A stretch of 64,000 bases of DNA from Candidatus Omnitrophota bacterium (GCA_963805065.1 CAWDSS010000016.1:65084-129083); one strand, 5' to 3'. Positions 3,881 through 32,454 are shown, counted from the first letter of the stretch. Notes: a model not told the origin generated them from the letters alone. Numbers and translations: made by a program.

Positions 3881-4030
3881 ATGCGCGAAATAATCACATT
3901 AGAGTGCACGGTTTGCAAAAATAGAAATTATACGACGACAAAGAATAAAAAAAAGCATCAGGACAGGTTGGAGATCAGTAAATTTTGCAGGTCCTGCCAT
4001 AAGCATACCCCGCATAAGGAGTCAAGTAAA
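3881..4030 (+). CDS. rpmG: 50S ribosomal protein L33 (zinc-type); the ORF as sequenced runs on to 4081 because the stop is lost
   Basis: [16 protein letters not shown]...[13 protein letters not shown]. The expected end is ...gag tca aag taa; the sequence reads gagtcaagtaaa (one A short), so the ORF continues into tRNA-Trp. Confidence 0.8.
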
Positions 4031-4066
4031 TTCAACATCTACTCACACTTAGATCGAATTATATAT

Positions 4067-4137
4067 AGGGGCGTCGGTTAATGGCAAACCAACGGTCTCC
4101 AAAACCGTGACTGCAGGTTCAAGTCCTGCCGCTCCTG
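4067..4137 (+). tRNA. tRNA-Trp (anticodon CCA)
   Basis: Acceptor AGGGGCG/CGCTCCT (one G-T pair), anticodon arm ACGGT-CTCCAAA-ACCGT, T arm GCAGG-TTCAAGT-CCTGC. Canonical position between rpmG and secE. Confidence 0.85.
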
Positions 4138-4173
4138 TAGTTTGTAAAAGGCAGTAGCGGATGAAGCAAGAGA

Positions 4174-4371
4174 ATGAGATATGAATATTATAGAAAACCG
4201 GTAAATTTTTTAAAAGAAGTAAGAGCGGAATTAGGAAAAGTTGCATGGTCAACGCGCCAGGAATTAATAGATGCTACGATCGTAGTCATCGTGGTTACGG
4301 CAATCATGGCGGTTTTTATCGGATTGATAGATATCCTGCTTTCCAAATTTTTAAGCGTGATGTTTAAATGA
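4174..4371 (+). CDS. secE: Preprotein translocase subunit SecE
   Basis: FLKEVRAELGKVAWSTRQEL followed by a single TM helix. Located between tRNA-Trp and nusG. Confidence 0.85.
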   Translation: MRYEYYRKPVNFLKEVRAELGKVAWSTRQELIDATIVVIVVTAIMAVFIGLIDILLSKFLSVMFK

Positions 4372-4897
4372 AAAATTGGTACGTGGTACATACTCAGACG
4401 GGCCTGGAAGATAAAGTCAAGGCTGCCCTTGAAAAAAGGATTGCCCAGGCCGGATTAAACGATTTGATTAGCAGTGTCGTTATCCCTACCGAACAGGTTT
4501 CCGAAATACGTTCGGGAAAGAAGAAAATATCCCAGAGAAAGTTTTTCCCCGGCTATTTACTCGTGGAAATGGAATTAATCGAGCAAACCTACCTTTTTGT
4601 TAAAACCGTCCCCGGCGTAACAGGTTTCATCGGCTTAGGCAAGAAAACCTATGCCCCTGCCCCAGAACGAAGTAGATAATATCCTAAAAAGAACAAAGGA
4701 AACCGCAGTAAAACCCAGCCCCAAAAGTAATTTTTGAAAAAGGCGAACAGGTAAGGGTTACAGAAGGCCCGTTTCTTAATTTTAACGGGACGATTGAGGA
4801 GATACATCCTGAAAAGGGCAAGGTCAAGGTTAGCGTTTCAATTTTCGGCAGGTCTACTCCCGTAGAGTTGGAATACTGGCAGGTGGAAAAAACTTAA
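4368..4897 (+). pseudogene. nusG: Transcription antiterminator NusG, interrupted by two +1 frameshifts (probably sequence indels)
   Basis: The NGN domain is in the frame of 4368. The continuation reads [26 protein letters not shown], then [56 protein letters not shown] in successive frames. There is an extra A in the A-runs at ~4644-4647 and ~4723-4726. Confidence 0.85.
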
Positions 4898-4903
4898 GAT
4901 AAA

Positions 4904-5329
4904 ATGGCAAAAAAAATTAACGCACAAATTAAATTACACGTTCCGGCAGCGCAGGCAAATCCCGCTCCTCCGGTAGGCCCGGCATTAGGCCAGCATGGCG
5001 TAAACATCATGCAGTTCTGCAAACAGTTTAATGATCAGACCAAGGGCAGGGACGGCTTGATCTTACCCGTAGTCATCAGTGTTTATGAAGACAGGACATT
5101 TACTTTTATAATTAAAAGCCCGCCTTCTTCGGTTCTTCTTAAGCGCGCGGCAAATTTAGCCAAGGCATCGGGGACAAGCGGAAAGGAAATAATCGGCAAA
5201 GTTACCAGGAAACAAGTCGAAGAGATCGCAAAGCTTAAGATGCAGGATCTAAATACTTCCGATATGGAAGAGGCAATTAAGATCATAGAGGGCACTGCCC
5301 GAAGCATGGGCATTGCCATAGAAGGTTAA
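4904..5329 (+). CDS. rplK: 50S ribosomal protein L11
   Basis: [30 protein letters not shown]; intact, 141 aa. Confidence 0.95.
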
Positions 5330-5335
5330 TAGATC

Positions 5336-6015
5336 ATGAAAACACAGAGTAAAAGATACAAGGAATCGGAAAAGCAGTTGGACAGGGATAAAACTTACCA
5401 GCTAAAAGAGGCAATACACTGCTTAAAAAAATGGCCTCCCCCAAGTTTGACGGTTCAGTGGATTTGCATTTTACCTTAACGTTGATACCAAGAAATCCGA
5501 CCAGATGGTGCGCGGGACAGTTGTCCTGCCGCACGGCACCGGTAAAAAAATCAGAGTGGCGGTTTTCTGCAAGGGAGAGCATGAAAAAGCAGCAAAAGAT
5601 GCACAGGCGGATTTCGTGGGTGCAATCGAATTAATAGACAAAGTTGCCGCCGGATTCCTGGATTTTGACTGTGCTATCGCTACTCCTGAAATGATGAAGG
5701 ATTTAAGCAAATTAGGCAAGATCTTAGGCCCGCAGCGGCCTCATGCCCAGCCCTAAGACAGGCACGGTTACAAATGATATCACGAAAGCCATCGAAGATG
5801 TAAAAAAAGGTAAGGTTGAATTCCGCGTGGATAAACAGGGCGGTGTTCATTTAGCAGTAGGCAAAATTTCTTTTAGCGAAGATAAATTGTATGATAATGC
5901 CTCAAGTGTAATCGAGGCATTGAATGAAGCAAAGCCGGCATCGGTAAAAGGAAAATTTATCCGTAGCCTTTATATTTCAGCTTCTATGAATCCGGGATTA
6001 AAACTATCTGTTTAA
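5336..6015 (+). pseudogene. rplA: 50S ribosomal protein L1, three frameshifts
   Basis: The segments MKTQSKRYKE..., [38 protein letters not shown]... and [14 protein letters not shown]... lie in different frames. The shifts are near 5425-5431 (A7 run), ~5476-5480 and ~5728-5740. Confidence 0.85.
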
Positions 6016-6016
6016 T

Positions 6017-30551: not shown

Positions 30552-30559
30552 TAAAAAAT

Positions 30560-30778
30560 ATGGCCAAAGAAGAGCTGATTGAAACAGAAGGAAAAATTAT
30601 AGAGGCTTTACCTAATGCAATGTTTAAAGTAGAACTGGAGAATGGACACGTAGTATTAGCGCACGTTTCTGGAAAAATGCGCATGAATTTTATAAGGATA
30701 TTACCGGGAGATAAAGTAAAGTTGGAACTTTCTCCCTATGATTTAACGAGAGGAAGAATTACCTTTAGGGTAAAATAA
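30560..30778 (+). CDS. infA: Translation initiation factor IF-1
   Basis: [41 protein letters not shown]... Confidence 0.95.
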
Positions 30779-30790
30779 ACGAGAGTGTGA

Positions 30791-30870
30791 ACCCCGCACC
30801 TTCTAGAAATTTAGTTATTTATAGAATAATAGATGTGCAGGGTTGGTGAATAGGAAAGAAGGTGCGGGGT
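30791..30870 (+). promoter_or_regulatory. 14-bp perfect inverted repeat whose 3' arm covers the rpmJ SD region and the first two bases of its GTG start
   Basis: ACCCCGCACCTTCT (30791-30804) pairs with AGAAGGTGCGGGGT (30857-30870). 52-nt AT-rich loop. The rpmJ GTG is at 30869. Confidence 0.6.
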
Positions 30871-30982
30871 GAAAGTAAAAGCATCGGTGAGAAAAATCTG
30901 CGATAAGTGCAAAGTTATTAAAAGAAGAGGTGTGGTGAGAGTAATTTGCATTAATCCTAAACATAAGCAGAGACAAGGTTAA
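30869..30982 (+). CDS. rpmJ: 50S ribosomal protein L36 (GTG start; below the ORF-track size cutoff)
   Basis: [37 protein letters not shown], then TAA. Canonical position between infA and rpsM. Confidence 0.9.
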
Positions 30983-30994
30983 TAGGAGAGATAT

Positions 30995-31412
30995 ATGCCA
31001 AGAATTTTGGGAGTTGACATACCAAAGGAAAAAAGAATAGAAATATCATTAACTTATTTATACGGCATCGGCCGCTCGCTATCCAATAAAATTCTAAAAG
31101 AAGCCCAGATTGACCCTAACAAACGCGCAAAAGATTTGACAGAAGAAGAGGTTTCCCGCATTACAAATACCCTGCAAAAAAGCGGATTGAAACTGGAAGG
31201 AGACTTGCGCAGGGACATTTCACAGAATATAAAGAGGTTAGTTGATATAGGTTCCTGGAGGGGCTTACGCCACAAGAAAGGGCTTGCCTGTAAGAGGGCA
31301 GCGGACCAGGACAAACGCCAGGACAAGAAAAGGCCCGCGTAAAGGCGGAATGGCAGTTATCAAGAAGGAACCTGCAAAGGCCCAACCGGCTGCGAAACCC
31401 GCAGGTAAGTAA
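30995..31412 (+). pseudogene. rpsM: 30S ribosomal protein S13, one frameshift near ~31287
   Basis: [27 protein letters not shown]...[10 protein letters not shown], then [20 protein letters not shown] in the next frame. Confidence 0.85.
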
Positions 31413-31429
31413 GCAAAGAAGAGGAGAAT

Positions 31430-31819
31430 ATGGCGACACAAGATAAGGCAAAAAAGAAAAAATTAGCCAAAGGAGTAACTTCAGGCATCGCTCATATACA
31501 GGCTAGTTTTAATAACACTATAATTACAATTACCGATAAACAAGGCAATGTAATGGTTTGGTCTGCGCCTGGTATCGTAGGTTACAGCGGTTCAAAAAAA
31601 TCCACTCCCTTTGCCGCGCAGGTGGCAGCATCTGACGCAGCCAGAAAGGCAAAGGAAATAGGCATTAAGGAAGTTGAAGTATGCGTAAAAGGCCCGGGGT
31701 TCGGCAGAGAATCTGCAATCAGGGCTTTACAGGCATCAGGATTGACCATTACTTCAATTAAAGATGTGACTCCTATCCCGCATAACGGTTGTCGTCCAAA
31801 GAAGAAAAGGAGAGTGTAA
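31430..31819 (+). CDS. rpsK: 30S ribosomal protein S11
   Basis: [18 protein letters not shown]...[16 protein letters not shown]. Confidence 0.95.
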
Positions 31820-31822
31820 TAA

Positions 31823-32454
31823 ATGGCTAGATACATTGATGCAGTCTGCAGATTGTGCCGTTCGCGAGGGAGAGAAATTGTTTTTAAAAGGCACAAAATG
31901 CTTTACCGAAAAATGCCCGGTGGCAAAAAGGGCGTATCCGCCAGGACAGCACGGAGAAAAATCGCAGGCCTAAACTATCCAACTACGGCCTGCAGCTAAG
32001 GGAAAAACAGAAAGTAAAAAGGATTTATGGGGTCTTGGAAAGGCAATTCCGCAAGTATTTTAAAATAGCATCTAAAACAAAAGGCGTAACCGGCAAGGTA
32101 TTGCTGCAGATGTTGGAGAGAAGGCTGGATAACGTAATTTTCCGTATGGGCCTTGCCATATCAAGGTCACAGGCAAGGCAGATAGTCCGCCATAACTAAA
32201 TCCATGTAAATAACCACAGGGTTAATATACCGTCTTATTTGGTTGACAAAGACGATACAATCTTCGTAAAGACCAAAGACAAAGCCCTTAAGAAGCTTAA
32301 AGAGAATCTTGAGGTATCAAAAGACAGGACAGTGCCTGCATGGTTAGAATTTAACCGTAATGACTTAAGCGCAAAAGTTCTCAGGCTGCCGGAAAAAGAC
32401 GATATCTCAATGCCGATTCAAGAGCAGCTGATCGTAGAGTTGTATTCTAAGTAG
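31823..32454 (+). pseudogene. rpsD: 30S ribosomal protein S4, two frameshifts (~31868, ~31972) plus an in-frame TAA at 32197-32199
   Basis: [77 protein letters not shown]...ARQIVRHN, then TAA, then IHVNNHRVNIPSYLV...EQLIVELYSK. Confidence 0.85.

Follow-up and report, generated by a model that had tools for sequence, protein, structure and literature searches.

The window analysed here is a 64,000-nucleotide (nt) stretch of an uncultured Omnitrophota bacterium (Candidatus Omnitrophota bacterium, GCA_963805065.1, CAWDSS010000016.1:65084-129083) and forms a portion of a 154,914-bp contig. It carries, in order, mfd, surA, pdxA, rsmA, a transfer RNA (tRNA) gene for threonine (tRNA-Thr, 3764-3836), rpmG, tRNA-Trp (4066-4138), secE, nusG, rplKAJL, rpoBC, rpsLG, fusA, tuf and the S10, spc and alpha clusters. 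From rpmG to rpsD (3881-32540, + strand) this core set of transcription and translation genes is broken by single-base insertions and deletions (indels), whose distribution, spectrum and origin are the subject of this analysis.

The closest relatives of the organism lie at some distance. Among 185,579 species representatives, the best matches to an RpoC fragment came from Candidatus Omnitrophota genomes L002 (Ca. Kappaea frigidicola), L003 and L004, at 84-86% amino-acid identity; no near-identical reference genome was found, RpoC reaching at most 86% amino-acid identity among GTDB species representatives and L10 84% in its best JGI match. The gene order across the left boundary of the affected segment is identical in a further relative, L082, and Rfam and tRNA scans returned nothing relevant except tRNA-Thr and tRNA-Trp at that boundary.

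Frameshifts in the transcription and translation cluster

We located the frameshifts gene by gene with a frameshift-aware protein-to-DNA dynamic-programming aligner, written for this analysis and validated on rplV, where the true site is known. The aligner recovered about 57 frameshifts, two nonsense codons and one 2-nt intergenic deletion, all between 4024 and 32532; the shifts comprise about 46 extra and about 11 missing bases, an insertion bias of roughly 4:1. The map of open reading frames (ORFs) shows the same confinement, with the + strand fragmented into short stretches between about 3.9 and 20.5 kb, and patchily up to 32.5 kb, and with long abutting ORFs in both flanks (1-3.6 kb and 32.5-64 kb). 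Searches by tblastn with the proteins of L002, L003 and L004 gave repeated frame changes inside rpoB, rpoC and fusA.

Most of the events lie in one high-density block at 4024-18509 on the + strand, which holds 51 frame-shifting events in 14.5 kb, or 3.5 per kb. The block opens in rpmG, where a missing A at about 4024 removes the stop codon and the ORF runs into tRNA-Trp; two shifts follow in nusG, three in rplA and three in rplJ (6017-6545; +1 near 6128-6133, -1 near 6211-6218 and +1 near 6504-6506). The polymerase genes are the most heavily broken: rpoB (6987-10394) has 11 shifts that divide it into about 12 frame segments, and rpoC (10376-14470) has 17-18, comprising 13-15 extra and 2 missing bases. 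An apparent nonsense codon in rpoB at 8539 is part of a net +2 indel complex and was left out of the count. Further along, rpsL loses its stop codon to a missing A at about 14838, and the fusA-tuf region (15324-18654) contains seven extra bases in fusA and five in tuf, with a possible further compensated pair in tuf at 17987/18015-18033 that would bring its total to perhaps seven shifts.

The six frameshifts outside this block fall into two clusters on the same strand, at 19.7-21.8 kb and 31.3-32.0 kb, with 9.4 kb free of indels between them. In the first (19688-21848), rplD has a net +2 near 19688, rplW a +1 near 20380, and rplV lacks a C at 21848. A nonsense codon in rpsQ at 23473 (TTA to TAA) precedes the clean stretch (23474-31219), and the right-hand cluster (31280-32197) then comprises an extra G in rpsM at 31280, an extra G at 31864 and an extra A at 31966 in rpsD, and a CAA to TAA nonsense change in rpsD at 32197. 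The final difference is the 2-nt deletion in the rpsD-rpoA spacer (32531-32533), between AGGAGG and the rpoA ATG. The genes of the upstream flank showed no shifts when aligned to relatives including L082; downstream, suspicious adjacent ORF pairs proved to be distinct genes with full-length Pfam matches, and no frameshifts were found in the 35 kb of flanks.

These results bear out most of an initial annotation of the window, which had traced a regionally confined load of 40-50 indels by hand as a lower bound, with shift-free flanks. The alignment counts exceed its minimum of nine pieces each for rpoB and rpoC, and agree with its three shifts each in rplA and rplJ, two each in nusG and rpsD, and single shifts or stop losses in rpmG, rpsL, rplD, rplW, rplV and rpsM. 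Its total was slightly too low, and the nonsense codon in rpsQ had been missed. Alignment to the closest genomes, which it had proposed as the way to an exact indel list, places most indels of the 4024-18509 block only to within a few bases.

Removing the indels restores ordinary full-length RpoB, RpoC, EF-G, EF-Tu, L1, L10 and NusG. Repaired RpoB is 88% identical to that of a relative (P0121) over 712 amino acids (aa). Across the part of rpoC at 10.8-11.8 kb, which contains about 10 shifts, the repaired protein is 94% identical to that of an intact relative (P0152) and the DNA only 79% identical to this relative's contig L088, a disparity that implies strong purifying selection. Universally invariant residues, as judged from 58-73 bacterial orthologues, are violated at 3 of 210 positions in repaired RpoC and at 6 of 229 in repaired RpoB, so that 430 of 439 are kept in all; other genomes average 0.7 violations in RpoC (maximum 5) and 1.6 in RpoB (maximum 14). 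Violations are thus a little more frequent than average, a small excess that local error of about 1% and a degree of mistranslation beside indels would be expected to cause, and the proteins are far from decay. At the window's shift sites the corresponding sequences are intact in L002, L004, L082, L087, L088, P0121 and P0152.

Independent assembly and a second haplotype

Four Logan contigs of run ERR10755942 (L001, L085, L086 and L089), found by exact-protein look-up, allow the window to be compared with an independent assembly. On the left flank, L001 is 100% identical to 986-3792 (2807 nt, + strand) and terminates inside tRNA-Thr. On the right, L085 spans 21217-24128 with 20 substitutions and one indel, the C that the window lacks at 21848, and has uninterrupted genes for L22 (112 aa) and S17 (93 aa); L086 spans 24099-28578 with eight substitutions and no indel; and L089 spans 28579-32562, encodes an intact S13 (138 aa) and an intact S4 (209 aa), and adds twenty further substitutions in the right-hand 1 kb, nearly all of them synonymous. 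Identity of these three contigs to the window over 21217-32562 is 99.3-99.8%. All gene-disrupting changes in the comparable 11.3 kb, namely four coding indels and both nonsense codons, are absent from the Logan contigs.

The dense block yielded a single comparison of this kind. An intact 176-aa L10 found only in Logan (P0307) is 95% identical to the repaired L10 of the window, the next match being 84%, and aligns end to end with the rplJ DNA, 171 of 175 residues being identical once three indels are allowed. The Logan comparison therefore covers 21.2-32.6 kb and rplJ, and the remaining 48 or so sites lie outside it. Exact-protein look-ups with rpoA, L11 and S7 gave no independent contig. The contigs of the intact haplotype end at or near the boundaries of the affected segment, at 3792 on the left and at 32562, inside rpoA, on the right.

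The substitutions that separate the window from the Logan contigs have the character of natural variation. Of 52 in total, 40 are synonymous, 10 are nonsynonymous and mostly conservative (E/D, S/A, K/R twice, V/I, I/M, M/L, A/S, R/G and L/V), and two are nonsense; the S11 gene has eight nucleotide differences and an identical protein. Because random sequencing errors would be mostly nonsynonymous, this excess of synonymous changes shows that a second real haplotype is present, and the differences are those of two populations that have each evolved under selection.

Haplotype differences are patchy, falling at 21.26-23.47, 28.03-28.98 and 31.22-32.20 kb with kilobases at 100% identity between them; the clean stretch, with its long runs at 100% identity, has 12 mostly synonymous substitutions. 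The mean distance to the nearest haplotype single-nucleotide polymorphism (SNP) is 36 nt for the six verified disruptions and 371 nt for positions drawn at random (P = 0.0025), so that the disruptions lie within second-haplotype patches. In the dense block the window appears to depart further from the Logan haplotype, because SecE, L11, S10 and L3, which look intact there, have no exact Logan match, unlike many proteins from the flanks and from 21-35 kb, and L10 differs from P0307 at four residues.

Distribution, spectrum and origin of the indels

The confinement of the indels is far from chance: at a uniform rate, the probability that every event would fall within 3881-32540 is 1.3e-20. Within 4024-18509 the gaps between events have a coefficient of variation of 0.93, as in a Poisson process, and the weakly conserved rplJ, with three events in 0.5 kb, is affected as heavily as rpoC. 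The indel rate differs between 3.9-18.65 kb and 18.65-32.5 kb with P = 1.7e-9. Because the spacing is Poisson-like regardless of gene and the rate differs between the two halves, the distribution looks like the outcome of a block-wise process, not of an effect graded by conservation. The initial annotation had placed the highest density at 4-20 kb and patchier damage at 20-32 kb; the dense part is instead a discrete 14.5-kb block, not a gradient that follows conservation.

A homopolymer effect is not mainly responsible for the indels. Platform errors of that type are concentrated in runs and are mostly contractions, a pattern that the shift sites do not show: the longest run at any of them is A5-A7 (for example A5 at 10833-10837), many have no run, and the rpoC sites compared with L088 are mostly in 1-2-nt contexts. 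When every single-base repair was enumerated, about 15 of some 40 resolvable insertions were best explained by a non-repeated base, eight of these at second codon positions. The changes verified against the Logan contigs are CC to C, GG to GGG, TTC·CGAG to TTCGCGAG (C·C to CGC) and CCC·GG to CGCAGG (C·G to CAG). The homopolymer-type spectrum proposed in the initial annotation is contradicted by these data; its A/T-run examples at 4641, 4721 and 8370 were recovered, and that at 17471-80 lies near 17466-17474, but the sites as a whole are not mainly in A/T runs. The insertion bias points to small insertions placed at random, of the sort that noisy single-molecule reads leave behind when the effective depth is low.

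Merging of alleles may add to this. All three verified insertions resemble two adjacent synonymous alleles (GGC/GGG, TCC/TCG and CGG/AGG), and about 60% of insertions permit an alternative synonymous deletion, compared with 33-50% expected under random insertion. A mixed pile-up that retained both synonymous alleles may thus contribute to the +1 errors; it is not the whole cause, because eight insertions lie at second codon positions.

Some sequence contexts recur at the shift sites. The stretch at 3.9-18.6 kb has eight CTTAAAG heptamers, of which four or five are at +1 sites (6212, 10511, 11022/11031 and 11205), and CTTA/CTTG, which are overlapping Leu codons, recurs at the +1 sites 10930, 11287, 12713, 16150 and 31280; CTTAAAG is also found at 18 unshifted places. 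Tentatively, this recurrence may reflect a mixed consensus in which both of two synonymous alleles were retained. A basecalling error at a methylation motif, with CTTAAG read as CTTAAAG, is unsupported, since 48 intact CTTAAG sites occur in damaged and clean parts alike.

We conclude, with a probability of about 90%, that the indels are errors in the assembled consensus rather than features of the organism's DNA, a conclusion judged from assembled contigs and proteins. The indels truly belong to the deposited sequence, but not to the organism. That indels cause frameshifts in long-read assemblies is well documented (PMC9262707). The sample contains two or more closely related populations, 98-99.8% identical over the conserved transcription and translation cluster. 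The flanks would be a high-accuracy consensus, whereas the sequence from the tRNA/rpmG locus to rpsD would follow the other haplotype in patches that had only a poorly polished, noisy, long-read-type consensus behind them. Ambiguous read mapping between near-identical copies that starved the polisher, mixed pile-ups, or few reads are the likely causes, and the outcome would be about one small indel per 285 nt across the 14.5-kb block and fewer elsewhere. From this pattern we infer both the platform, noisy long reads, and what exactly lowered the consensus quality locally. The initial annotation had favoured an artefact of consensus building or polishing in a conserved, multi-strain region, and this reading is sustained by the intact genes of the independent assembly, by the second haplotype and by the conservation of the repaired proteins.

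Several observations weigh against this conclusion. Direct evidence within the dense 4-18.5 kb block is one protein, the L10 P0307, listed without its source run. The haplotype of the Logan contigs differs slightly from that of the window, by 0.2-2% in patches; the contigs therefore establish an intact version in the sample but do not show that the window's own haplotype has indel-free molecules. The marked excess of insertions and the repeated CTTAAAG/CTTA contexts are not predicted by simple homopolymer error and are only tentatively explained.

The indels belong to a known class, long-read or mixed-population consensus errors, and are unusual within it only in their sharp confinement and in their insertion-biased, non-homopolymer spectrum. 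As in the indel errors of Nanopore or PacBio continuous long reads (CLR), single-base indels break conserved ORFs and vanish in an independent, more accurate assembly; those of the window differ in being confined to a 28-kb segment of a 155-kb contig that otherwise looks free of errors, insertion-biased, not dominated by homopolymers, and co-localised with a second haplotype. Indel and frameshift errors in long-read assemblies were reportedly described by Watson and Warr in 2019, and the IDEEL truncated-protein test is a measure of such errors. The window also resembles collapsed or unpolished strain-shared regions, in that the most conserved gene cluster is hit, a second haplotype at 98-99.8% identity is present, and the window switches between haplotypes in patches; ambiguity of read mapping, which marks such regions, is here a presumed element.

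The same class of artefact could have arisen by another route, in a patchwork or hybrid assembly in which accurate short-read contigs were bridged or gap-filled by raw or lightly corrected long-read sequence where conserved multi-strain k-mers had tangled the short-read graph. The independent k-mer assembly is interrupted in tRNA-Thr, at 3792, a short way before the first error; no small intact-looking protein from 4-18.6 kb has an exact match in Logan, as many from 21-35 kb do; the error rate jumps abruptly at the boundaries; and a 14.5-kb block with Poisson-like errors is about the length of one long read. Raw long reads of older types, however, have more indels than the 0.35% seen here, a rate that would call for Q20-type reads or a few-fold consensus, and the SNP-only, indel-free patch at 28027-28984 shows that the second haplotype was sometimes assembled accurately. 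We regard this route as possible but doubtful; it is a close variant of a polisher starved of reads, and the two are not separable from sequence alone.

Explanations in which the frameshifts are real fare far worse, the chance that the indels are biological being a few percent overall. The indel-bearing sequence could be a decaying copy of the 28-kb cluster, either a second copy or that of a dying sub-population, with an intact copy doing the work, as the sharp boundaries and the 98-99.8% identical intact version in the same run would allow. Against this, the 40 synonymous and 10 mostly conservative changes give a ratio of nonsynonymous to synonymous rates (dN/dS) of roughly 0.1, nowhere near the value approaching 1 of relaxed selection, which means that purifying selection acted during essentially all of the divergence of the indel-bearing copy; about 57 indels with almost no neutral amino-acid change are unlike the decay of a pseudogene, and the retention of 430 of the 439 universally invariant residues is likewise not the loss that decay would bring. 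Moreover, the left-boundary gene order is that of L082, the flanking genes are unique and place the cluster in its normal single-copy position, and the Logan haplotype continues across the right boundary into rpoA. A decaying duplicate, which the initial annotation had listed as a lesser alternative, is therefore contradicted by strong purifying selection on the sequence that bears the indels, and we consider it very unlikely. Real frameshifts might instead be decoded by programmed ribosomal frameshifting or transcriptional slippage: the affected genes are highly expressed, a few sites are in A-rich sequence (such as the A5 run in rpoC), and CTTAAAG is common to four or five sites. Yet +1 and -1 shifts are mixed, no common slippery motif or pattern of nearby stop codons and no site conserved in relatives was found, so that the defined motif, single direction and conserved position of programmed frameshifting are all lacking; rpoA, secY, rplB and all flanking genes would need no recoding, the shifts come together with two nonsense codons, and the same run also yielded an intact version. 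Rescue by slippage at poly(A) tracts was reportedly described by Tamas et al. in 2008 in the endosymbionts Buchnera and Blochmannia, which are like the present case in having frameshifted essential genes in a small-celled, possibly host-dependent bacterium with some A-rich sites. Such slippage needs A/T runs of about 9 nt or more, however, and no A or T run of that length was found at the window's sites, where runs are at most 5-7 nt and often absent and the shifts go in both directions. We consider decoding of this kind barely credible. It is likewise extremely improbable that the indels are genuine in a natural sub-population that still expresses these genes through pervasive recoding, or that the window shows a second copy of the whole 28-kb cluster that lost its function only very recently.

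A naturally split rpoB was also considered and rejected. Split and fused polymerase genes are known, among them archaeal rpoB'/rpoB'', cyanobacterial rpoC1/rpoC2 and the Helicobacter rpoBC fusion, and the window resembles them in that its rpoB and rpoC appear as several ORFs and in that Omnitrophota yield many RpoB matches of about 440 aa (440-465 aa on long contigs, the lead that raised the idea). The break points of these matches differ from assembly to assembly, however, and end in out-of-frame tails in alignment A1; cluster members P0121 and P0124 read through, as do L002 and L004. No lineage-conserved split point with each part a complete ORF with its own start was found, and intact relatives belong to the same 90% cluster. 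Targets in the homologue search went no further than about 1.75 times the query length (469 aa with a query of 268 aa and 607 aa with one of 347 aa), and many of the short RpoB matches arose because fragment queries under this length limit enrich truncated homologues.

Neighbouring features, related assemblies and implications

Several further observations concern rpoB and its neighbours in other Omnitrophota. Truncated N-terminal fragments of RpoB occur in many assemblies, some on contigs of 38-144 kb, with breaks at RpoB residues of about 390-455; each breaks at a different residue in the highly conserved Rif-cluster region and has an out-of-frame tail or a contig end, and in these sequences assembly breaks and errors appear to concentrate in the most conserved stretch of rpoB. 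One related Omnitrophota was assembled twice (L083, 7245-17438, JGI 3300018489; and L084, whole, Logan SRR5196689), the two versions differing only by four single-base indels and both frameshifted in nusG (135 + 40 aa), rpoB (440 + 671 aa) and rpoC (four pieces). They are noisy assemblies, and show the same class of artefact in the same genes of another dataset. Separately, the RpoB of the window and its close relatives is without a segment of about 62 aa that is found in L002 and L004 (alignment A1 columns 227-288; window about 7600), a lineage-specific insertion or deletion.

The intergenic spacers of the spc operon contain inverted repeats. A perfect 14-bp inverted repeat, ACCCCGCACCTTCT...AGAAGGTGCGGGGT, is found in the infA-rpmJ spacer (window 30790-30870; RNA fold z = -4.2), and weaker copies of GTGCGGGGT lie in other spacers of the operon at 23574-23586 (- strand) and 24924-24936 (+ strand). 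In the relative L087 (GCA_017973895.1), similar CCCCGCCCTTCC...GGAAGGGCGGGG hairpins follow rplF and infA (5818-5868 and 10250-10300). These spacer repeats may be a conserved intergenic hairpin or an element of the clade like the repetitive extragenic palindromic (REP) sequences. Between rpsQ and rplN, L087 also has an 86-aa ORF with a GIY-YIG domain (3157-3417), an insertion absent from the window. In the downstream flank of the window, a cobalamin riboswitch (80.8 bits, 54720-54896, + strand) lies directly upstream of a 708-aa ORF at 54944-57070.

The practical value of the finding lies in quality control, not in biology. Errors of this kind can be sharply confined to a conserved, strain-shared part of a contig whose 35 kb of flanks look perfect, and a global quality figure per contig would miss them; they soon come to light when the contig is compared with a k-mer assembly made independently from the same run. 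The damaged rpoB, rpoC, fusA, tuf and ribosomal protein genes are single-copy markers for completeness estimates and phylogenomic placement, and a genome bin with such a defect can be mis-scored, misplaced or wrongly called "pseudogene-rich", a matter of some relevance to the Omnitrophota, for which genome reduction and host dependence are debated.

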